Assembly: GCA_014382365.1 (NCBI GenBank)
Contig: JACNJW010000035.1
Location: 1,165-65,164, forward strand
DNA: 64,000 nucleotides
Source of the DNA: SAR324 cluster bacterium
GTDB lineage: Bacteria; SAR324; NAC60-12
Reading direction: 5' to 3'
Shown: positions 17,622 to 28,358 of the stretch, piece after piece
How positions within the stretch are numbered: the first letter of the stretch is position 1
Layout: every line of letters begins with the position of its first letter
Translations under genes and position numbers: made by a program
The notes under the pieces: generated by a model
Told to the model about the DNA's origin: nothing
The model's input: only the letters and a program-made list of their open reading frames with translations
Databases searched by the model: none

Positions 17622-18938
17622 ATGACTACCATTTTATCATTCCTAGCAGTGCTTGGAATTCTGATTTTCATCCATGAACTCGGTCACTATCTCGCCGCCC
17701 GCCATGTAGGAGTACGCGTAGAGGCTTTCTCAATCGGCTTTCCGCCAACAGCATGGGGAAAGCAGATTGGAGAAACTGAATACCGTATTTCGTGGGTTCC
17801 TCTGGGAGGTTATGTCAAATTATTTGGACAGAATGTTAGCGATGAAAATCCGGATGACCCCACAAATTATGCGGCAAAATCAATATTTCAACGGCTTTAT
17901 ATTCTTGTTGCAGGACCGCTGATGAATCTATTGTTTGCCTTAATCATTATGCCACTGGTTTTTTGGATTGGGATGGATGTTCCTGCTTATTTAAATGAGG
18001 TTCCACGCATTCAAAATATCCTAAGCGGAGGCTATGCTCAAAAATTAGGAGTCCTTCCCAATGATGAAATTATAGCGGTGAATGCTAACCCTGTTAAAAA
18101 CTGGGAAGAACTGCATAGTACGATGGGGCAAATTTCACCTGCTGACAGTTTCAGCCTGGAAGTTTATCGAGGTGGTAATTCAGTGGCTCTTGAAGGCTCT
18201 GCTCATGAAATGCTCCGAGCCGGATCAATGGGTTGGTCACCTTTTATGGCACCGGTTGTTGGAGGATTTACCAAACTATCTCCTGCACAACAAGCCGGAA
18301 TCCGAGTAGGTGATCTAGTTTCTGCTATCAATAACAGTGCAATTCAGGACTGGAGTGAGATCTCACCGGCAATTCAAACTATCATGAATAGTAAGCTTGA
18401 TTCTGCAAATAATTCAGAAACAAACATTGCTGTTGAATTACAGAGAAATGGTGAGCTTCTATTAGTAGAAGTTGTTCCCTATTTGGAAGAAAATTCACAA
18501 CGCTGGCTTTTGGGCATGAGCATGTCAAAGATTACGCGCTCACACTCCTTTACTGAATCAGTTAAATTGGGAACCTTCCGCTTGTGGTTTCTGAGCAAAG
18601 CTACCTTTGGGTTTCTGGCTCAAATGTTCCAGGGAGAAGGATCGATGGATGATCTTGGCGGTCCGGTCAAAATCGGGATGGTGATTGGTGATGCTGTACG
18701 CAGTGGCTTGGCTGACCTGCTGTTTTTGATGTCATTCATCAGCCTTCAACTTGGTATCTTCAATTTACTGCCGATTCCTGCTTTGGACGGAGGGCATATC
18801 TTTATGTTGTTGATAGAAAAAATAAACGGTGCTCCTCTAAGTGTGGCTTTACGCGAAAGATCTCAGATGCTTGGTTTTTCTGTCCTAATCTCTTTGATGA
18901 TTTTTGTTACATGGAACGATTTAGTGAGCTTGCTCTGA
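17622..18938 (+). CDS. rseP: RIP zinc metalloprotease (site-2 protease) RseP
   Basis: HELGHY zinc motif, PDZ region, and C-terminal LDGG motif. Confidence 0.8.
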   Translation: MTTILSFLAVLGILIFIHELGHYLAARHVGVRVEAFSIGFPPTAWGKQIGETEYRISWVPLGGYVKLFGQNVSDENPDDPTNYAAKSIFQRLYILVAGPLMNLLFALIIMPLVFWIGMDVPAYLNEVPRIQNILSGGYAQKLGVLPNDEIIAVNANPVKNWEELHSTMGQISPADSFSLEVYRGGNSVALEGSAHEMLRAGSMGWSPFMAPVVGGFTKLSPAQQAGIRVGDLVSAINNSAIQDWSEISPAIQTIMNSKLDSANNSETNIAVELQRNGELLLVEVVPYLEENSQRWLLGMSMSKITRSHSFTESVKLGTFRLWFLSKATFGFLAQMFQGEGSMDDLGGPVKIGMVIGDAVRSGLADLLFLMSFISLQLGIFNLLPIPALDGGHIFMLLIEKINGAPLSVALRERSQMLGFSVLISLMIFVTWNDLVSLL

Positions 18939-18956
18939 ATGTACCTCCATTTTTAC

Positions 18957-18985
18957 TTGACAAGTTTTTAACTTTACTATAAATT
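18957..18985 (+). promoter_or_regulatory. Candidate sigma70-type promoter (TTGACA, about 15-17 nt spacer, TATAAA) for the repeat-protein gene
   Basis: The two hexamers are read directly from the sequence. A strong SD (AGAGGAGA) precedes the ATG at 19153. Confidence 0.3.
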
Positions 18986-19152
18986 TCACTAACGATCATT
19001 TTCATATTGAAAGATGACTGGCAACCGCAGATTATGAAAGGCTATGGAAGTGGATACTGCGGTAAGTATAATCCACTTTCATAAAGACAATAAACTACTC
19101 TTCATGAGCAACTTGGAGAGATATCTTTTTAACGCAAACAGAGGAGACTAAA

Positions 19153-20151
19153 ATGGCAGAAGAAACAACAGGCGGTGAGCCGCAAGCAGGACCGGGACCG
19201 GATGCAGGTCCTCCTCCAGCTGGAGAAGTAAATATAGACGGAAACACACTTTCTTCAGATGGTGAAGGCAACATGAGCTTTGAAGGAGCTGATGGGGCAC
19301 ATGGTGAAATGAGTGCAGACGGATCTGCATCATTTCAAGGACCGGAAGGTTCAGGAATATCTGGAGAAATGAATGCTGATGGTTCAGGATCATGGACTGG
19401 TTCGGACGGTACTACTACTTCTTGGGAAGCCGGTGAAGCTCCTCCTAATGACTTGCCCGGAATGGAAGCACTTCCTGATATGGGAGAAATCGCCAACTCC
19501 CCTGAAGCAGTAGAAGCTTTTGGCGGCCCTCCTCCGGGAATGATGGATGGCGAACCTGGGATAGGTCCAATGCATGGAGACATGGAAGGAGTGACAGGTG
19601 ACGTATCTGGCTGCTCGGGTGACATGACTGGTGTAACTGGAGACGTGTCTGATTGTTCTGGCGATATGTCAGGATGCCAGGGTGATATGACTGGCTGCGA
19701 AGGCGACATGTCTGGAGTCACAGGTGATGTTTCAGATTGTTCTGGAGACATGACTGGTTGTCAGGGTGACGTATCTGGCTGCTCTGGCGACATGACTGGT
19801 TGCGAAGGTGACATGACTGGAGTCACTGGTGACATGGGGCCATACGCTGGTGACATGACTGACGTGACTGGTCCTCCACCAGCTGAAATGATGGGTGCTG
19901 AGGGCGACCAAGGAATGGGTGCCATGGATCAAGCATTTGCTGACCCAGGAATGGATCCTGGAATGGCTCCTCCAGGGGATGATCCAATGGGAGCTGCACT
20001 TGACGATTCTGCTGCGGCAAGTGATGCCGGTGGTGCAGCTGGAGGCCAAGGTCCAGGACCAGACCCAATGGCTGATATGCCTGACCCAGGGATGGATCCT
20101 GGAATGGATAAAGAGCCTGAAGACGACCAGGATGGTGGTGCTATAGGTTAA
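19153..20151 (+). CDS. Acidic Gly/Asp/Met/Cys/Pro-rich repetitive protein with 14 tandem heptads GD(M/V)xG(C/V)x; no recognisable signal peptide
   Basis: 332-aa ORF with its own promoter-like hexamers and a strong SD, followed by a hairpin. No family assigned. Confidence 0.55.
   Translation: MAEETTGGEPQAGPGPDAGPPPAGEVNIDGNTLSSDGEGNMSFEGADGAHGEMSADGSASFQGPEGSGISGEMNADGSGSWTGSDGTTTSWEAGEAPPNDLPGMEALPDMGEIANSPEAVEAFGGPPPGMMDGEPGIGPMHGDMEGVTGDVSGCSGDMTGVTGDVSDCSGDMSGCQGDMTGCEGDMSGVTGDVSDCSGDMTGCQGDVSGCSGDMTGCEGDMTGVTGDMGPYAGDMTDVTGPPPAEMMGAEGDQGMGAMDQAFADPGMDPGMAPPGDDPMGAALDDSAAASDAGGAAGGQGPGPDPMADMPDPGMDPGMDKEPEDDQDGGAIG
19576..19872 (+). repeat. 14 tandem copies of a 21-nt (7-codon) repeat inside the ORF, imperfect at the DNA level
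   Basis: Protein residues 142-240: GDMEGVT GDVSGCS GDMTGVT GDVSDCS GDMSGCQ GDMTGCE GDMSGVT GDVSDCS GDMTGCQ GDVSGCS GDMTGCE GDMTGVT GDMGPYA GDMTDVT. Copies differ mostly by synonymous substitutions. Confidence 0.8.
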
Positions 20152-20168
20152 TACCAGTTGAGATCATG

Positions 20169-20202
20169 TAAGTGGTGCACTAAATTTTTTTTGCACCACT
20201 TA
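20169..20202. terminator. Perfect 11-bp inverted repeat TAAGTGGTGCA-N12-TGCACCACTTA (hairpin; candidate intrinsic terminator/attenuator or regulator site)
   Basis: Read directly. Lies 18 nt after the stop of the repeat-protein gene and 120 nt before the ABC transporter gene. Loop and 3' flank are T-rich. Confidence 0.4.
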
Positions 20203-20321
20203 TTTGACTATTTTATTATCCCAAACAAACCCACAACATGTGTGCCATTTAGAGAGATACACACCTCTTCGTTTTTCTTCAAAAATACTAATCCTAAAAC
20301 CTTCTTAAAAATAAATCCACT

Positions 20322-22547
20322 ATGTTTGGCAAGAAAAAAAATGAAATTCTTGTTGATCACAGGCTGGCTTATTGCGTCTCTTTGACCACCAGAAGGCATG
20401 GAGTATATATAAATCGTGAGGAGGTAGAAAAAAAATTCCCTGAAGACGATCCTCCAAAAACCACTAGAGAATTAAATGCTTTTCTCGCAGAGAGAAAACT
20501 TGAAGCAAATCCAATAAATATTTCAACAGATGATTTCAAGGATAAAAATTTCGTATTTCCCTGTGCAGTTCCATTTACGAATGGTCAGTCAATCATAGCA
20601 TTAAGTGTACTGAAGAAAGACGATGATTTTTTTGTTAAGTTTCTTGACCCGTTAGACCCTCAAGCCAGGCAACAGGAAGTTGGAATAAATGAATTTGAGA
20701 AACTTTGGAAAAATATTGTTTTTTCAGTAAATGCACTAAGAGGTACTGAAAGTAAAGAAAGATCTTTTGATTTAGAATGGTTCCTTCCTGAATTATGGAA
20801 ATGCAGATATATGCTTCTTTGTGCTTTCATAATTTCTATTCTACTGAATATATTATCATTTACTCCTATAATTTTCATACAGATAGCCTTAGATAAAGTT
20901 GTAGGATATAAAGCTATTTCTACTTTATATGTACTGACAGCAGGAGTTGTTGTTGCACTAATATTTAATGCAATAATGGGTTTTATTCGCGATTACATTT
21001 TCAATTACATAGGAGATATACTTGAGTCCAGAATTGCAACTGATGTCTTTGACAAATTGCTGGGACTACCCTTAATAGAAGTTCAAGGAGAAAACATAAC
21101 TAAATTTGGGGGCTCAATGCAATCAATTACAGCCTTAAGGAATACTCTGGTCATGAGAGTGTTTAAGGTAGTTTTCGATTTGACTGCTGTACTCGTTTTT
21201 GTCCCAGTTATGTTTGCATATAATTTCCTGATGGGAATAATAGTGCTTGGATTTTCTCTGTTGATGGGTTTTAACAAAATCATTTTTAACAATATTGCAG
21301 GTAAATCTCCAGAAATACTAAACGAAGTGGAAAGTAGTAAAAACAGTCTGGTTCGCGAAACCCTGCATGGAATGACAATGCTCAAAGAGTTTGAAGAGGA
21401 AGAATCGGAGAGGAAAAATTGGCGAAAATCTGCTGCTGCTTCAATTATGTTAAGATCAAAGAAAAATCAGGTAAACAGCGCATCCACCGAGATTAACAGC
21501 TTTCTTCAACAAGCAATGACAATTGTAATTATCTTTACTGGAGTACAATTAGTTTTTGCTGAGCAGCTTTCTGCTGGTTCAATCATAGCGATTAATATGG
21601 TCGCTGGAAAATTAACCTCTCCTATTATTGCTGCAATCACATTATTTGGTGAAAGAACACAAATATTAAACCTTATCTCTCAAATAGGTGAGATTTGGAA
21701 TAAGGGAAAAGAACAATTGGGAGCAGGTGTTCACTCAGCCATAAGTGGAAAATATACTTTTGATAAAATTTCAATGAGTTTTGGAGATGTAAAAGCATTA
21801 AACAAAATATCTTTTGAGCTAACACCAAAATCCAAAGTTGGAGTAGTGGGTCCTACTGGAGCAGGCAAAAGCACATTGTTAAATATTCTTGCAGGAACAT
21901 TTCATCCTACAGAAGGTAGAATGGAAATAGATGGAGTAGGAATAAATCAATATGATTTATCATATTACCGTTCGCAGGTTATGCTGTTGGATAAGAAACC
22001 CATATTTTTTAAAGGTACAATAGAAGACAATATGTCCCGGGTGACACACAACATTGGTAAAAATGAACTTGCACACATTTTTGCTTTAACAGGATTTGAT
22101 GAACACCTACAAAAACTGCCTGAAGGTATTCATACAACAATTGATGAAACTGCCAGCCAATTGGCTGGTGGAGCTGCAAGCCTGCTTGCACTTTCAAGGG
22201 CTTTGCTTGCAAATCCAAAAGTCTTGCTTTTGGATGAGTTTGCAGATTCACTTGATATTGATACCAGAATTAAATTACAAGATAACTTTTCTACTATCGC
22301 CAGTGAAAGAACCGTGGTCGATGCTCAAAATGTAATAAGTCATGAATTAGATTCAATATCGAATTATGATAAAATTATTGTCTTAGATGGAGGTAAAGTA
22401 GTTGGACAAGGCAAGCATGAGCAGCTGCTTGTTAGTTGTGAAATTTATAGGCAAATGCTGGAAAAAGAAAAAAAATTGAGTGCAATTGGTGAATCGAAAA
22501 ATACAGAAACAAAAGAAAATCCTCCTGTGGATCAAGAAAATGCTTAG
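20322..22547 (+). CDS. Type I secretion/bacteriocin-type ABC exporter with N-terminal C39-peptidase-like domain, 6-TM exporter domain and C-terminal ATPase
   Basis: 741 aa. N-terminal ~150 aa resembles the C39 Cys-box (LAYCVSLTTRRHGVYINREEV). Then a type I exporter TMD. Walker A GPTGAGKST, Walker B LLLDEFADSLD, H-loop SHE. The signature motif reads LAGGAASL rather than LSGGQ. Confidence 0.75.
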   Translation: MFGKKKNEILVDHRLAYCVSLTTRRHGVYINREEVEKKFPEDDPPKTTRELNAFLAERKLEANPINISTDDFKDKNFVFPCAVPFTNGQSIIALSVLKKDDDFFVKFLDPLDPQARQQEVGINEFEKLWKNIVFSVNALRGTESKERSFDLEWFLPELWKCRYMLLCAFIISILLNILSFTPIIFIQIALDKVVGYKAISTLYVLTAGVVVALIFNAIMGFIRDYIFNYIGDILESRIATDVFDKLLGLPLIEVQGENITKFGGSMQSITALRNTLVMRVFKVVFDLTAVLVFVPVMFAYNFLMGIIVLGFSLLMGFNKIIFNNIAGKSPEILNEVESSKNSLVRETLHGMTMLKEFEEEESERKNWRKSAAASIMLRSKKNQVNSASTEINSFLQQAMTIVIIFTGVQLVFAEQLSAGSIIAINMVAGKLTSPIIAAITLFGERTQILNLISQIGEIWNKGKEQLGAGVHSAISGKYTFDKISMSFGDVKALNKISFELTPKSKVGVVGPTGAGKSTLLNILAGTFHPTEGRMEIDGVGINQYDLSYYRSQVMLLDKKPIFFKGTIEDNMSRVTHNIGKNELAHIFALTGFDEHLQKLPEGIHTTIDETASQLAGGAASLLALSRALLANPKVLLLDEFADSLDIDTRIKLQDNFSTIASERTVVDAQNVISHELDSISNYDKIIVLDGGKVVGQGKHEQLLVSCEIYRQMLEKEKKLSAIGESKNTETKENPPVDQENA

Positions 22548-22564
22548 GTTTGGGAAATAACTAA

Positions 22565-24313
22565 ATGACTGTAGCAACAAACACATTGAAACCCCAATTA
22601 TTAGTGCTGAAAAAAGGGGAGTATGTCTTTGAAGAAGGAGATGAAGCAATATTTGCTTATGTTCTCACTGAAGGCACAATTGAGATTGTTGCAATTATCA
22701 AAGGAGAAGAACTGGTTCTGGGAAAAGTAGAAAAAGGGACTATTTTTGGAGAAATGGCAATAATTGATGGCTTCCCGAGAAGCGCATCAGCACGTGCTGC
22801 CACTGCTTGTAAAGTACAAGAAGTTGGTCATAAAGAATTTCTTAATTATATTTCTAAAAAACCGGATGCTGCATTCCAAATAATGGGTAGACTATCTGGT
22901 TTTGTCAGGTCTGCTGATAAAAAAGCAAGTGAAAGTTTTTTGCTTCGTAAAACAGGTGTAAGTGAGGAAGAAGAAGATGGAAATAATGATAAGACCGACA
23001 TCGTTGCTGTACATAATTTTGAAGACACAGAGTCGATTTATGCCAGACCTCCTGCTAAACCTGTCATCGTCACTGCAGTCAGTTTGATCCTATTCATGTT
23101 GGTCATGACCCTCTGGGCATCTTTTTCTTTTGTTGATAAAACAGTTTCTGCACGTGGTAAATTCACAAATACTGCACCTAATATTGAAATTCAATCTACT
23201 GGTAGTTCAATTATTGAGGAATTAAATTTAGAACGAGGTCAATTCATTACAAAAGGAGAAACAGTTGCAAAACTTGATGGCACTGTTGTAAATGCAAATC
23301 TCAAAATTACCAGAGACAAAATATATGCAGTAAAAAATAAAATTTTGCGCCTTGAACTTCAAAAAATATCAATCTTACAAAAATCCTTAAATGAGGAATC
23401 TCTGGTTGAACTGGACAGTATTAACAAAGAAATATTAAACAGACACTTTGATGAATTTATGATTACAATGAAAACATTTTCTTCTGATCTTTTACGGTTA
23501 GAAACAGAAATTGTTTCAATGTCTGCAGATAAAGATTTAATTCGTGACCAGCTGGATATAAAAATTAAAATTGAAGATGGAAAAAAGAAGTTGTTTGAGA
23601 AAAATGTTGGTTCATTAATGGACACATTGAGTTCTACTGATCAAAGAATTTCTGTGAACCGTCAATTATTGTCAACAACTGGAAGTATCAAAAAACTCAA
23701 ATCAGAAAAAACAGCACTTGATGACCAGAGATCCTCTTATTTGACTGGAGAATTAGCAGGAATCGCAGTAGAACTTTCTTCTTTTAATGATCAATTACTT
23801 CAATTAAATGAGGAGTTAATTAAAAATGAATTAGAGAGAAGCAATTTATTTATTAAATCTCCAGTTGAAGGTGTTGTCTTAAATTTGCCTACAATTACGA
23901 TTGGATCTCTCATAAATAAAGGAGAGCCTATAGTAACATTAGTAAGAGCCGGATTACCCCTTGTTTTAGAGATTGATGTAGATCCAAAAGATGCCAGTGA
24001 TTTGTATAATGGGAATCCTGTTTCAGTCAAAATTGATGCCCTGCCATTTCAACAGTTTGGAGACCTGGCAGGAACCCTGGTCTATATTTCAGATGATACT
24101 GTAGAAGAATCCCTTCAGGGAGAATCCGGTGCTTTTTATCGTGGAAGAGTTCATGTTAAAGATTCTGAAATTATGGGATTGCCTGAAGAATTCGATTTAA
24201 CACCAGGTATGCTGGCAACTGCAGATTTAAAAGTAGGCAAAAGAAGATTGATTACATATTTTACAAATCCAATTCTAAAATCACTTTCAAGTGCTATGCG
24301 TGAACCGGATTAA
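22565..24313 (+). CDS. HlyD-family membrane fusion protein with N-terminal cyclic-nucleotide-binding (CAP-family) domain
   Basis: 582 aa. Residues ~15-120 carry cNMP-binding motifs (GEYVFEEGDEA...FGEMAIIDG..RSASARA). One TM (VIVTAVSLILFMLVMTLWASF). Long coiled-coil and a C-terminal HlyD beta-barrel region (...PGMLATADLKVGKRRL...). Confidence 0.7.
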   Translation: MTVATNTLKPQLLVLKKGEYVFEEGDEAIFAYVLTEGTIEIVAIIKGEELVLGKVEKGTIFGEMAIIDGFPRSASARAATACKVQEVGHKEFLNYISKKPDAAFQIMGRLSGFVRSADKKASESFLLRKTGVSEEEEDGNNDKTDIVAVHNFEDTESIYARPPAKPVIVTAVSLILFMLVMTLWASFSFVDKTVSARGKFTNTAPNIEIQSTGSSIIEELNLERGQFITKGETVAKLDGTVVNANLKITRDKIYAVKNKILRLELQKISILQKSLNEESLVELDSINKEILNRHFDEFMITMKTFSSDLLRLETEIVSMSADKDLIRDQLDIKIKIEDGKKKLFEKNVGSLMDTLSSTDQRISVNRQLLSTTGSIKKLKSEKTALDDQRSSYLTGELAGIAVELSSFNDQLLQLNEELIKNELERSNLFIKSPVEGVVLNLPTITIGSLINKGEPIVTLVRAGLPLVLEIDVDPKDASDLYNGNPVSVKIDALPFQQFGDLAGTLVYISDDTVEESLQGESGAFYRGRVHVKDSEIMGLPEEFDLTPGMLATADLKVGKRRLITYFTNPILKSLSSAMREPD

Positions 24314-24368
24314 TTAATTTTGCAGTTGATAAAACAGGCCACTGCAGTCCTCTTCAACACCTCGTTTG

Positions 24369-25742
24369 TCAAGTCAGCCAGACACTCCAATAAGAATAAG
24401 CAAAAACAATAATCAGAAAAATTCCTGCCAAATTAAAGAAAAATCCAAATTTTGCCATTGTTTGTACATTCACCACGCCACTGCTCATCGCAATTGCATT
24501 TGGCGGAGTAGCGATAGGAAGCATGAAAGCATAACTTGAACAAATTGTGGCAACCATCAAAAAAAGCCGAGTATCCAGCCCATTTCTTTCAGAAACTTCA
24601 TAGAGTACTGGCAAGAGCATTGAAATCAGTGCTGTGTTGCTTGTTATTTCTGTTGTAAATGTGACCAGTAAAGCAATGATCAGCAGCAGCAGCAAAGGAG
24701 GAAGAGTTGTTATGCTTGAAAGCTGTTCAGCCAGTACCTGTGACAGTCCTGTGTGTGAGAAGGAGTATGCAATGGAAAAACCTGCACCAAAGAGGAACAT
24801 TATTTCAAAGGGAATTTTTTTGGTATCTTCCCAAACCAGCAGGTTGAATGGAGGAACAAACATCAGCAAACCAAAACTGAGTAGAATTGCTTTTTCGTTA
24901 AGATTCAAACCGGGATAATAAGGTTCTAGTGGTGAATTGGCAAAGAGGAGCAGTACCAGTGCGCCAAGTGTGTACATCAGTTTTTTTTGATCAAAACTTA
25001 AAGCATCCAACGCTTTGACTGAATCCAGTTTTTTGCTTTCAAGTCCAAAGGAGAGAACGAAGGAAACAACAAAAAACATCAACAAGGCCAGTGGTGCCAC
25101 CATTAATACCCATTGAATGAAGGGTAATGTTTCGATGCCCTTATCTTCTAAAACACCATATAAAATCAGATTGGGCGGTGTTCCAATTGGAGTAGTAATA
25201 CCTCCAACACTAGCTCCATATGCAATTGCCAGAGCAAAGCGGATTTTTAGAGTAACATCAGTCGTCAAAAAGAAGGCCAGTGGCATCAGCAATAAAGTCG
25301 TTGTTGTATTTGATAGACAGGAGCTTAAAACACCGGAAGTGATCGAAAGCGCAAAGATCATTCCTCGGGGTGTTTCAGGAAATATCCGCAGCATTTTTGT
25401 GGCAATCACTTTATGCAAACCAGTCTTTTCAACTGCAATCGCCAGCATAAAACCTCCGAGAAACAAAAATATGATTGACTTAGAATAGTTTGGTACGATC
25501 TGGTTGACTTCTGCAATATCAAAAGCTGGAAAAAGAATAATCGGCAAGAGAGATGTAACTCCAAAAGGAATTGCTTCGTTACTCCAATAAATCACCATTG
25601 CGGCAATCAGACTGAGCAGCATTGCCTGAGTATGAATTAAGATCATACTGCTCAAAACATAGATCAGACCTCCAAATGCCAGTCCGCTCAAAATACCAAC
25701 CCAGGAGTGTTTATGCTTGATTCCTTTTGTTAAAATACTCAT
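24369..25742 (-). CDS. DASS/SLC13-family anion:Na+ symporter (ArsB/NhaD permease superfamily)
   Basis: 457-aa polytopic protein with two SNT(T/A) hairpin motifs (LSNTTTTLLLMP; TSNTALISMLLP). Confidence 0.6.
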   Translation of the reverse strand: MSILTKGIKHKHSWVGILSGLAFGGLIYVLSSMILIHTQAMLLSLIAAMVIYWSNEAIPFGVTSLLPIILFPAFDIAEVNQIVPNYSKSIIFLFLGGFMLAIAVEKTGLHKVIATKMLRIFPETPRGMIFALSITSGVLSSCLSNTTTTLLLMPLAFFLTTDVTLKIRFALAIAYGASVGGITTPIGTPPNLILYGVLEDKGIETLPFIQWVLMVAPLALLMFFVVSFVLSFGLESKKLDSVKALDALSFDQKKLMYTLGALVLLLFANSPLEPYYPGLNLNEKAILLSFGLLMFVPPFNLLVWEDTKKIPFEIMFLFGAGFSIAYSFSHTGLSQVLAEQLSSITTLPPLLLLLIIALLVTFTTEITSNTALISMLLPVLYEVSERNGLDTRLFLMVATICSSYAFMLPIATPPNAIAMSSGVVNVQTMAKFGFFFNLAGIFLIIVFAYSYWSVWLT

Positions 25743-25827: not shown

Positions 25828-27075
25828 TCAATGAAGAATTTGACTCATATTTAACATCGGCAAGAGGACTGCGAGTGCAATAAACCCGACAACGCCGCCC
25901 AGGACCAATATCAAGGCAGGTTGCAAAAGAGAGGTCAGGGCTTCCAGCAAGGTATTTACTTCTTCCTGCATTCGGTCTCCCACTTTTTCCAGCAGTTCAT
26001 CTACTCTTGCAGCTTCTTCGCCAATTGACACTACATGCCGAACGTATTCAGGAAAATAATCAATTCGTGACATTGCAGCAGAAAGAGGAACTCCCTTATC
26101 GTTCACATCAATAATCAGTAAATCCAGTTTATTTATAAATACTTTGTTAACTACAACATGTTTTGATATTTCGAGAGTAGTTTTTAAATCAACTCCACTT
26201 TTTAATAACGTACTAAGTGTCTGACAGTAGCGGGCAACCATGATTTTTATCCGCAGATTTTTCAGTAACGGGAGTTTCAGTTCAAGTTGGTCGCGCAGTG
26301 TACGACCGCGTTTACTGCGCAAAAATGTTATTGTTCCGGAGGCAATTACAAAAAATGCCAGCAACAGCATAAACCAATGATTTACCACAAAATCACTGAC
26401 ATTCATTAAAACCCGTGTTGGCAACGGCAGTGCCGCTTCCTGTTTTTCAAAGATGCGGGTGATTTTTGGTACTATAGTTGTGACCATAAATATTACTACT
26501 GCCACTCCAAAAACCATCATGAAAGCGGGATAAATGAGAGCACCCTGGATCTTAGAGTGTAAACGCTCCTGTGCTTCATAATAGTCTGCAAGCCTTCTCA
26601 TTATTGAACCAAGGTTGCCGGCATTTTCTCCGGAACGAACCATACTTACATACATTGCAGGGAAAACTTCCGGATGCATTTCCATTGCTCCAGCCAGCGA
26701 TACACCTTCCATCACCCGTCCACGTACTTCTGATAGTATGCTCTGAAAACCGGAATCCTCAGTCTGTGGAATTATTAATTGAAAAGCCTTGTCATAAGGA
26801 ATGGTGGCATCCAACAATACTTCTAACTGACGGGTAAATTGAGTTAACACCTTACCTGAAACACCTTTATTAAAAGATATTTTGGGCCAGTTTAATTTGC
26901 TGCTTTTTACAGCTCCAGCATGTTTTTTTCTGGTAAACCGGCTGGTTCGAATTTCCTTGGGAAAAAGTTCTTTAGAGCGTAAATATTGTCGAACTTCAGA
27001 TTCAGAAGCAGCATCTTTGGTTCCCTTGTGCAAAGTACCCTCACCATCAAAGGCCTGATAATTATAGATCGGCAT
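25828..27075 (-). CDS. gspF: Type II secretion system F / type IV pilus PilC family inner-membrane platform protein
   Basis: 415 aa. N-terminal YQAFDGEGTLHKG...EVRQYLRSKELFP motif and two T2SSF repeats. Confidence 0.75.
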   Translation of the reverse strand: MPIYNYQAFDGEGTLHKGTKDAASESEVRQYLRSKELFPKEIRTSRFTRKKHAGAVKSSKLNWPKISFNKGVSGKVLTQFTRQLEVLLDATIPYDKAFQLIIPQTEDSGFQSILSEVRGRVMEGVSLAGAMEMHPEVFPAMYVSMVRSGENAGNLGSIMRRLADYYEAQERLHSKIQGALIYPAFMMVFGVAVVIFMVTTIVPKITRIFEKQEAALPLPTRVLMNVSDFVVNHWFMLLLAFFVIASGTITFLRSKRGRTLRDQLELKLPLLKNLRIKIMVARYCQTLSTLLKSGVDLKTTLEISKHVVVNKVFINKLDLLIIDVNDKGVPLSAAMSRIDYFPEYVRHVVSIGEEAARVDELLEKVGDRMQEEVNTLLEALTSLLQPALILVLGGVVGFIALAVLLPMLNMSQILH

Positions 27076-27080
27076 TTTTG

Positions 27081-28358
27081 CTATTGCTTCAAATAAGTTT
27101 CCAGTGTTTCTTTTGACGCCTGTAGAGAGTTCATGTCGTTCGGTTCAACACGGACTTTTGAGGATTGTACTTTCCATTTCCATTGATTTTCTTGAGCATC
27201 ACTCATGATACCCTGCCGGCCTCGTCCGTCCGGCGCAAACTCTGCCTGAGCAAGCACATAACCTTGACCGGTACTTTTTTCACTTGCTTCCAATATTACA
27301 GATACATATTCATATTGTGGATTATCTGGTGCACCTGAAAGCTCACTGTTATGAATCTGCCTGGCTGCATTCATGGCCACACGGGCACGCTCCCTGGCGG
27401 TTCTTGCTTCCGGAGCAATAATACGAACCAACAAACGTGTCCGTGTTGAACTGCTCTGATCTTCGACCATCAAAACCTGATAGGGTGGAATAGGACTGTT
27501 ATTATTTGCAGTCCTGACTTTCTGTGCAGACAACTGACTCAACAGCAAAATCAGTAATGCCAGTAAAGAACCAATTGCTAAAAGAGACCAACGTTCCCAA
27601 CTATGTTTCATAAACGATAAAAACCTGGGCCAGCGAAGCATAAGCGGAGGAAAAAATGGGATGCTCCAGACAACAAGAAAAACTCCGGCAAGTGGTGAAA
27701 ATAAAGATATTCCCACTCCAAGAGAAATACTTAAAATTGAAAACAGCCAATCCATCACATAACCCTCAATATGTTTAACTTTTGGCTGTTCAGACTCTGC
27801 AGCTGAATCTCTAACCACAGTTCCACCACCATCAGCTAATGCTGGAGGTTCCGGAATACTTTCGGTAACAGGCGGCAGTTTCAAGGATTCTTCTTCAATA
27901 TCTTTGGCTGCCAGATATATTGAATTGCACCAGATATTTGCTGAATATAATGTTGACTCACAACTTGGATTTGGTACCGGTAAATTCTGTAATGCTGTGT
28001 GTAGTGGTAGAACCAAACTGTGCATTTTGCTGCAGGAAGAACAACAACTGGAACTATTTATTTTTACTTTTTGCTGCCCATTCTGCTGCAGGTCCAGCAA
28101 ACGTGATTGGTGTGATTTTTGTTGATATACAAAAGAATTTTCACCAAGTTTGTCCTTGAACAGGGCCATATTCCAGTACAGCATCTGCAAGGTTTGATAG
28201 TTGATGGCCTTTTTTGCCAAATCTTCAAAAAGAGAGAAAAACACCTCATTTTCATCAACTTCTTCCCCAGCAGATTTGCTGAGTAAATTCATTTTTTCGT
28301 CAAAATCTTTGGCAGTAACCCCAAATGCACGTAAATCTTCGGGAATGGAAACAGTCAT
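27081..28358 (-). CDS. Hypothetical membrane protein co-oriented with gspF (cytoplasmic N-domain, hydrophobic core, C-terminal domain)
   Basis: 425 aa, no confident family. Architecture loosely resembles GspL-like platform partners. Cys-cluster CCSSCS. Confidence 0.35.
   Translation of the reverse strand: MTVSIPEDLRAFGVTAKDFDEKMNLLSKSAGEEVDENEVFFSLFEDLAKKAINYQTLQMLYWNMALFKDKLGENSFVYQQKSHQSRLLDLQQNGQQKVKINSSSCCSSCSKMHSLVLPLHTALQNLPVPNPSCESTLYSANIWCNSIYLAAKDIEEESLKLPPVTESIPEPPALADGGGTVVRDSAAESEQPKVKHIEGYVMDWLFSILSISLGVGISLFSPLAGVFLVVWSIPFFPPLMLRWPRFLSFMKHSWERWSLLAIGSLLALLILLLSQLSAQKVRTANNNSPIPPYQVLMVEDQSSSTRTRLLVRIIAPEARTARERARVAMNAARQIHNSELSGAPDNPQYEYVSVILEASEKSTGQGYVLAQAEFAPDGRGRQGIMSDAQENQWKWKVQSSKVRVEPNDMNSLQASKETLETYLKQ

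Follow-up and report, generated by a model that had tools for sequence, protein, structure and literature searches.

The open reading frame (ORF) at positions 20322-22547 of a 64-kb stretch of contig JACNJW010000035.1 from a SAR324 cluster bacterium (below called the window, i.e. the whole stretch of 64,000 nt that was analysed) encodes an ATP-binding cassette (ABC) protein that is the inner-membrane component of a type I secretion system (T1SS)-type module with the architecture of HlyB and the peptidase-containing ABC transporters (PCATs). We found that its ATP-site motifs have decayed and that this decay is a trait of a whole subfamily, previously undescribed and widespread in marine bacteria. 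It concerns motifs which close the ATP site across the dimer or link it to the membrane domain: signature and Q-loop, a portion of the D-loop and, in many members, also the H-loop. The nucleotide-binding side is mostly kept (Walker A Lys, Walker B Asp and Glu, A-loop aromatic residue), and the gene is under purifying selection in every domain, including the atypical nucleotide-binding domain (NBD). We consider it probable that the module is a T1SS variant under cyclic nucleotide monophosphate (cNMP) control, in which the ATP sites of a homodimer would be unable to work in the canonical manner and which would export a polyanionic protein almost free of Lys and Arg.

In HMMER alignments with HlyB (7sgr and 8dck) and with both halves of P-glycoprotein, LSGGQRQRIAIARAL at residues 614-628 aligns gap-free and residue for residue with LAGGAASLLALSRAL, and MAFFT alignments with 14 to 78 relatives gave the same register. 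The signature hereby reads LAGGA instead of LSGGQ. A canonical signature hidden at another place was rejected, since a scan of the full-length 741-aa protein found neither SGG nor GGQ nor any PROSITE-like ABC signature. The stretch LAGGAA[S/N]LLALSRAL is invariant across 120 homologues at 87-93% identity (labelled SAR324 cluster bacterium, with generic public annotations), so that LAGGA is not a chance substitution. In the Q-loop the motif VSQEP or VLQDN has become LDKKP, with Lys558 at the position of the Gln; this Gln is present in all 42 canonical relatives and in none of the 120 close homologues. The D-loop reads DSLD for SALD, the first Ser being replaced by Asp, and just before the H-loop there is a SAR324-specific insertion of four residues (VDAQN, where canonical relatives have a single residue), at which the confidence of the structural model dips. 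The consensus set for ATP hydrolysis is incomplete in that signature, Q-loop and D-loop deviate, while Walker A, Walker B and the H-loop are kept. With LAGGA confirmed as the signature, a homodimer would have two atypical composite ATP sites. In the passage of PMC4389535 that cites Tombline 2004, exchange of Ser for Ala in both P-glycoprotein signatures together is stated to abolish ATPase activity.

The original prediction for this ORF, made from the letters alone, had described an apparently degenerate signature beside a good Walker A, a Walker B with catalytic Glu and an H-loop, all of which the alignments confirm (Table 1). It had added that both ATP sites of a homodimer would then be atypical, and this is borne out by the LAGGA register, with no partner exporter in the window or in related loci. 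Profile alignments found neither a canonical LSGGQ elsewhere nor an intact Cys/His/Asp triad in the N-terminal domain. The loss of the Q-loop Gln, the family-wide extent of the decay, the cNMP-sensing adaptor and the Lys/Arg-poor cargo described below go beyond that prediction.

A HMMER search of 1.84 billion cluster representatives returned a tier of relatives at 27-46% identity that precedes the canonical T1SS ABC proteins, and the subsequent scan of one genome per species yielded 80 loci. Carriers are SAR324, Rhodospirillaceae, Thalassospiraceae, Magnetovibrio, SAR116/Puniceispirillum and Rhodobacteraceae/Paracoccaceae, further marine Burkholderiaceae, Magnetococcales and the cultured Terasakiella sp. 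A23; a Planktomarina metagenome-assembled genome (MAG) is among the Rhodobacteraceae-type carriers. Not one of the 77 non-identical orthologues, which were taken from other contigs as well as from the 80 genome loci, has LSGGQ; the variants comprise LAGGA, LPGAQ, LSQSH, LSQGN/D, LPSSY, LSTGI, LPRSL and IWNAD. Residue retention was counted in a non-redundant set of 25 family members. Of these, 2 retain G608, 9 retain G609 and 2 retain Q610 of the signature, 6 have the Q-loop Gln and 14 have the H-loop His. On the binding side, 22 retain the Walker A Lys, 24 the Walker B Asp, 18 the following Glu and 20 an aromatic residue in the A-loop. Walker A is wholly lost in the SAR116 members and at locus L009, where the ORFs are intact and the adaptor gene is kept. 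Among 25 positions that are lost in the family yet conserved in at least 85% of canonical T1SS ABC proteins, 22 lie in the NBD. The mean pairwise identity within the family is 0.405 for the transmembrane domain (TMD) and 0.376 for the NBD, the reverse of the order in canonical controls (0.315 and 0.483). Neighbour joining separated the degenerate sequences, as two basal groups, from a single large clade with LSGGQ.

Comparison of the ABC gene with six SAR324 orthologues (dS 0.2-2.1) gave a dN/dS of 0.085-0.125. By domain the ratio amounts to 0.06-0.17 for the N-terminal domain, 0.05-0.10 for the TMD and 0.08-0.13 for the NBD. In the literature we found no description of a cNMP-HlyD secretion system, a SAR324 T1SS, a T1SS ABC protein with degenerate sites or the cargo proteins considered below, and on C39-like domains paired with degenerate T1SS signatures only a general review.

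Regarding the identity of the protein, Pfam places ABC_membrane at residues 165-432 and ABC_tran at residues 493-639. NCBIfam ranks two families of T1SS permease/ATPases highest, LssB with 361 bits and HlyB with 354 bits. These scores are about half of the curated cut-offs (TIGR03375, 693 bits; TIGR01846, 726 bits), so the ORF scores as a member of neither subfamily; by NCBI's criterion it is not an LssB member because 361 bits are far below 693. The closest sequence match in the PDB is E. coli HlyB (HMMER, 257 bits over residues 15-707). An AlphaFold2 (AF2) model of the whole ORF, with 68 sequences as input, reached a predicted local distance difference test (pLDDT) score of 84.6, and its top Foldseek match is HlyB in the HlyB/HlyD complex (7sgr_A, E 2e-46, TM-scores 0.71/0.74), with PCAT1 next. 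By sequence and fold matches the protein is a type IV-fold half-transporter of the HlyB/PrtD/LssB group. In the TMD, Arg368 (nt 21423-21425) stands beside the near-invariant Trp367 and is kept in 12 of 14 family members; canonical T1SS ABC proteins have Asp or Glu here, so that the charge is reversed at this point of the cytoplasmic extension of the TMD.

The N-terminal 150 residues are, as far as sequence and structural model indicate, a catalytically dead C39-like domain that deviates even from the HlyB type. Pfam scores Peptidase_C39 (PF03412) at E=0.02 and 15.2 bits, against a gathering score of 22. The separate AF2 model of residues 1-150 (pLDDT 92.8) finds its best Foldseek match in the C39-like domain of HlyB (3zua), with further matches to 6mpz, 3k8u, PCAT1 and 3b79; TM-scores against the active C39 peptidase domains of LahT, ComA and PCAT1 are 0.60-0.70. 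Because the model best matches 3zua and then active C39 peptidases, we assign the C39 fold. In a profile search against the PDB the catalytic Cys position of PCAT1 falls on R14 (±1), at the N-terminus of the helix formed by residues 13-26. C18 was rejected as a catalytic Cys: it lies four residues into this helix, aligns with the second, non-catalytic Cys of the C-GAAC motif of PCAT1 and is replaced by Ser in 6 of the 120 close homologues. In HlyB the C39-like domain retains a His stacked on a conserved Trp (H83/W77; PMC8277102), and these two positions align with S90 and P84. The only His residues within residues 1-150 are H13 and H26, and the family alignments contain no conserved His at the position equivalent to H83. 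E8 occupies the position of the oxyanion Gln and S90 that of the catalytic His; the sole triad member left is D109 in the 'DP' motif, an Asp that all family members share. An active peptidase-containing transporter was rejected, catalytic Cys and His being absent. The original prediction was thus right that this region is C39-like, that it shows no convincing His-box and that it may be an inactive domain as in HlyB; its Cys-box alignment did not stand, being off by about four residues and centred on the non-catalytic C18.

Directly downstream of the ABC gene, 18 nt past its stop codon, begins the ORF of a HlyD-family adaptor. NCBIfam TIGR01843 matches it with 257.6 bits (cut-off 208.65), and Pfam finds cNMP_binding (PF00027) at residues 14-98 (E 9e-19, 67.7 bits versus 27.5). 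The layout comprises an N-terminal cytoplasmic cNMP domain, an acidic linker, a transmembrane helix read from the sequence at residues 167-190 and a periplasmic HlyD body. The phosphate-binding cassette follows the pattern FGE[MV]A[LIV]ID..PRSA.A.A, which is nearly invariant in 75 distinct partner adaptors and far better conserved than the motifs of the neighbouring ATPase. Nearly all loci whose sequence continues past the ABC gene have a cNMP-HlyD fusion as the next gene on the same strand, and with few exceptions the two genes are between -82 and +68 nt apart. HlyD has an acidic cluster in its cytoplasmic segment that binds basic residues in the C39-like domain of HlyB (PMC11026475), and because of this contact the sensor domain of the adaptor would be expected to sit beside the C39-like domain and the NBD. 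A strict link between cNMP-HlyD adaptors and degenerate ATPases was rejected, as the adaptor of the canonical protein P0132 also has a cNMP-like domain, its cassette being degraded. The semi-degenerate P0133 has a separate CRP-like regulator gene upstream, not an adaptor fusion (the P0132 adaptor and the P0133 CRP-like gene are found at L090:3146-3910 and L092:505-1191).

In Rhodobacteraceae-type loci a class III nucleotide cyclase (PF00211, 295 aa, E 6.5e-16) sits between the cargo and ABC genes (L029, L031, L035, L038, L042, L045, L046, L049, L052, L054, L055, L059, L067 and L072). Cyclase genes were also noted elsewhere nearby, about 7 kb downstream in the SAR116 loci L087-L089 and at L064:15391-17142. 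No nucleotide cyclase was found in the 64-kb SAR324 window. Another SAR324 genome carries, about 7 kb upstream of the module (L001:1041-3278, minus strand), a gene for a 745-aa protein that combines a metallo-beta-lactamase/Apyc1-like part with a cNMP-binding domain and could be a cyclic-nucleotide phosphodiesterase.

The gene upstream of the ABC gene encodes the candidate cargo, an extremely acidic protein with 44 Asp, 23 Glu, one Lys and no Arg (net charge about -66) and with 23% Gly, 9% Met and 10% Pro. It carries GDMTGCx heptad repeats and a conserved C-terminal region of about 90 aa that ends in ...DDQDGGAIG; neither a Pfam or NCBIfam match nor RTX (repeats-in-toxin) nonapeptides were detected in its 332 residues. 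The same three-gene module occurs with other flanks in another SAR324 genome, where the cargo has a longer array of repeats and an almost unchanged C-terminal stretch of ~90 aa. In other SAR324 loci, too, cargo homologues lie directly upstream of the ABC gene, with varying repeat number and the same C-terminus. We defined Lys/Arg-poor ORFs as having ≤1.2% Lys+Arg and lying on the same strand next to the ABC-adaptor pair. Across the loci (L001-L089) 61 such ORFs were identified, 35 of them without any Lys or Arg, against a background of 10.9%. Their median composition is 12% Met, 15% Pro, 16% Ala, 17% Gly and 12% Asp. They share a C-proximal motif, about DPMAGLDAALGGAMDQAMDQG, and end with acidic residues followed by a short hydrophobic tail (...DEPIVG, ...AGMG, ...GDVV); to judge from the sequences, these C-termini appear to resemble the signals of protease/lipase-type T1SS substrates. 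An RTX cargo was rejected: none of the 61 ORFs has three or more GGxGxD motifs. Among the repeats are MPPEAMxGMDADMM (Alphaproteobacteria) and GDMTGCx (SAR324); variants with His/Cys in some copies recall Met-rich Cu(I)-binding motifs.

The mechanism that we favour would work as follows. The module would consist of the candidate cargo, the ABC protein and the cNMP-HlyD adaptor, and a TolC-family channel encoded elsewhere, possibly the outer-membrane factor gene of the window (Table 1), would complete the conduit. As no partner gene lies nearby (a second TMD-containing ABC exporter was absent from the window and from the 10 kb around the gene in some 80 loci, and a search for a partner exporter through the whole window and about 90 loci met with importer-type ATPases only), the ABC protein would act as a homodimer. 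This homodimer would still bind ATP and hydrolyse it slowly or not at all, since the double Ser-to-Ala exchange abolishes the ATPase of P-glycoprotein and since the family tolerates further catalytic losses. The dead C39-like domain would dock unfolded cargo, as in HlyB, and binding of cAMP or cGMP to the cytoplasmic domain of the adaptor would license the conduit to open or assemble; such control is suggested by the conserved cassette and by the cyclases in some operons. The Lys/Arg-free polyanionic protein would then leave via its C-terminal signal, probably helped by the inside-negative membrane potential. Cationic stretches block T1SS export, an effect ascribed to the membrane potential, and charge sensitivity is documented (PMC11031901). 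Because the cargo, with its charge of about -66 and next to no Lys or Arg, stands at the extreme of this tendency, the potential and not ATP possibly does most of the work.

Several points weigh against this reading. The cargo is assigned by gene neighbourhood and C-terminal resemblance only, and at the threshold used no Lys/Arg-poor ORF appeared in roughly one in four of the loci that have sufficient flanking sequence. The cNMP-HlyD fusion is not exclusive to degenerate ATPases, since P0132, the nearest LSGGQ relative, also has one, and cNMP-type domains can bind other ligands, for instance guanosine tetraphosphate (ppGpp) in HetC (PMC10986499). A partner ABC protein may be encoded elsewhere in the genome. 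Further, degeneration has gone least far in the SAR324 protein: signature GG, catalytic Glu and H-loop His are all present and its NBD is under purifying selection, so that it may still hydrolyse ATP usefully. An ordinary, fully ATP-driven homodimer, in which LAGGA and the Q-loop loss are tolerated and the cNMP domain only modulates the rate, would build on these same residues, together with Walker A, the Walker B Asp and the A-loop Phe, on the low dN/dS of the NBD and on an overall fold equal to that of HlyB. We nevertheless regard it as unlikely: the double exchange in the P-glycoprotein signatures abolishes ATPase activity according to the source cited above, the Q-loop Gln of all canonical relatives is absent, signature, Q-loop and H-loop drift throughout the family with some members keeping the operon although Walker A or the catalytic Glu is gone, and conservation is lower in the NBD than in the TMD, opposite to canonical relatives. 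At the other extreme, an ABC-derived channel without ATP hydrolysis could be opened by cAMP or cGMP, with the cargo driven electrophoretically by the inside-negative potential and the ATP sites structural or regulatory and lost outright in some lineages. Such a channel would explain the Lys/Arg-poor cargo, the better conservation of the TMD than of the NBD and the basic R368, and we think it doubtful.

It is improbable that the protein is the degenerate half of a heterodimer with a canonical partner half encoded elsewhere, as in TM287/288, TAP or the RtxB/RtxE-type T1SS. Asymmetric ABC proteins typically have degenerate signatures, LSQSH or LAAGQ for example, and the partner search extended over the window and 10 kb around the related loci; within this range, however, no second exporter was seen in many lineages, and known heterodimer partner genes are normally adjacent. 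Even with a partner both composite sites would still be impaired, because the same subunit is degenerate in its own Q-/H-loop and in the signature that it lends. We hold it to be very improbable that the system is a Pycsar-type anti-phage effector, with a cyclase signal upon infection opening an ABC channel that depolarises the cell and with the acidic protein incidental. A class III cyclase and a membrane protein with a cNMP domain do share one operon in several lineages, a dispensable ATPase would fit a channel, and PADLOC matches the cNMP domain to Pycsar effectors (E 2.5e-7) and the cyclase to PycC (E 1.2e-6). These matches, weak and at domain level only, are all that PADLOC gave for a known defence system; moreover, the window has no cyclase, and the flanking genes are housekeeping genes and not a defence island. 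The conserved cargo-like gene, TolC in some of the operons and the full periplasmic HlyD body point to secretion instead. That the gene is decaying, a pseudogene in progress, is scarcely credible. It would account for the lost catalytic motifs and for the low GC content of the ABC gene (0.35 versus 0.425 for the window), and in the SAR324 MAG FRAM18_bin343 (L073:10599-13994) ABC and adaptor genes are split into several ORFs, which reflects either a real pseudogene or an assembly or frameshift error. But more than 120 close homologues have the 741-aa ORF intact, with the motifs invariant, and SAR324, Alphaproteobacteria, Betaproteobacteria and other lineages share the gene order; a pseudogene was rejected on the dN/dS of about 0.1 in every domain.

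Among known systems, HlyB/HlyD/TolC of E. coli (group 2 T1SS; 7sgr, 8dck, 3zua) shares with the module the three-domain ABC architecture and fold, a C39-like domain without catalytic Cys, the HlyD-family adaptor immediately downstream of the ABC gene, a cargo gene upstream with a conserved C-terminal region, and the presence of Walker A, Walker B and H-loop. It differs in that the window protein has LAGGA, no Q-loop Gln and S90/P84 for H83/W77, in that the adaptor bears a cNMP-binding domain instead of the short cytoplasmic tail of HlyD, and in a cargo that is almost without Lys and Arg and has no GGxGxD arrays of the RTX type. LssB/LssD-type T1SS (TIGR03375) is the best-scoring curated family, aligned over residues 14-703, but its canonical members keep LSGGQ. 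PCAT1, ComA and LahT (PF03412) have the same papain-like C39 fold and the same type of exporter core; unlike these, the N-domain here is without catalytic Cys and His, and the cargo proteins, of 100-770 aa with a conserved C-terminus, differ from small peptides with double-glycine leaders. HetC of Nostoc PCC 7120 is a PCAT with an N-terminal cNMP-type domain that is required for function (PMC10986499) and resembles the module in attaching such a domain to a C39-class ABC export system. HetC differs, however, in that the domain forms part of the ABC polypeptide itself, with no neighbouring adaptor gene, and in that it has an active peptidase and an active ATPase, both essential; the ligand identified in vitro was ppGpp.

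TM287/288, TAP1/2, CFTR and SUR have non-consensus signatures (LSHGH, LAAGQ, FSQGQ) comparable to LSQSH, LAGGA and LSQGN of the present family. In degenerate-site ABC proteins ATP binding is retained and hydrolysis is lost at the affected site, and CFTR is an ABC exporter fold turned into a gated channel. All of these are heterodimers or chains with two NBDs and one consensus site, whereas here one gene product would have both sites degenerate. Homodimeric ABC transporters are expected to keep two consensus sites, and a conserved and selected family with both degenerate, and in some lineages gone, challenges this expectation. The fixed pairing with a cNMP sensor, plus a cyclase in some lineages, suggests second-messenger control of a T1SS at the level of the machine itself. 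Many marine lineages may release Met-rich polyanionic proteins, which trypsin-based proteomics would not detect because they are without Lys and Arg. How protein export is powered and gated when the ATP motor is crippled thus becomes a testable question.

Table 1. Coordinates of the module, of its motifs and of neighbouring features in the 64-kb SAR324 window
Feature	Position (nt)	Strand	Basis
Candidate cargo, 332 aa	19153..20151	+	composition, gene neighbourhood, conserved C-terminus
Perfect 8-bp hairpin just past the cargo stop: GTGGTGCA, 12-nt loop, TGCACCAC, then TTATTT	20172..20199	+	read from sequence
T1SS ABC exporter, HlyB/LssB-type, degenerate ATP-site motifs, 741 aa	20322..22547	+	NCBIfam, PDB match, AF2/Foldseek
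C39-like N-domain, aa 1-150, predicted catalytically dead	20322..20771	+	AF2, Foldseek, profile search against PDB, family alignments
TMD, aa about 150-465, best-conserved part of the family	20769..21716	+	Pfam ABC_membrane
Walker A GPTGAGKST, aa 510-518, intact	21849..21875	+	alignments
Q-loop region VMLLDKKPI, aa 553-561, Lys558 in place of Gln	21978..22004	+	alignments
Degenerate ABC signature LAGGA (versus LSGGQ), aa 614-618, followed by ASL (versus RQR)	22161..22175	+	alignments
Walker B and D-loop LLLDEFADSLD, aa 635-645, D638 and E639 intact	22224..22256	+	alignments
H-loop VISHEL, aa 671-676, H674 kept	22332..22349	+	alignments
HlyD-family T1SS adaptor, 582 aa	22565..24313	+	Pfam cNMP_binding and HlyD_3, NCBIfam TIGR01843
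Phosphate-binding cassette FGEMAIIDGFPRSASARA, adaptor aa 61-78	22745..22798	+	pattern in partner adaptors
Small HlyD-like adaptor beside the OEP gene, 328 aa	30800..31786	-	
OEP/TolC-family outer-membrane factor, candidate exit, 524 aa	31824..33398	-	Pfam OEP, E 2.9e-21

The hairpin between the cargo and transporter genes could, judging by its sequence, be an attenuating terminator. It was missed by the terminator scan because its loop exceeds 8 nt; in the scanned region (18900-24500) promoter and terminator hits were no more frequent than in shuffled sequence. The OEP gene lies 7.5 kb from the module, and the same gene is found at the same distance downstream of the ABC gene in the SAR324 loci L010 and L073; a TolC gene within the operon is present in L064, L075, L076, L079-82 and L084. 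It is uncertain whether the OEP gene of the window belongs to the ABC module. No inner-membrane pump gene stands alongside it and the small HlyD-like adaptor. Just beyond the module, a homologue of type II secretion protein F (25828-27075, minus strand) adjoins a DUF4875 protein (27081-28358, minus strand), and no other type II secretion or type IV pilus genes were seen among the window ORFs scanned. Within SAR324 the module occurs in at least two genomic contexts, after dxr-rseP in the window and near pheT in L001. The GC content shifts sharply inside the module, from 0.535 in the cargo gene to 0.350 in the ABC gene and 0.348 in the adaptor gene.

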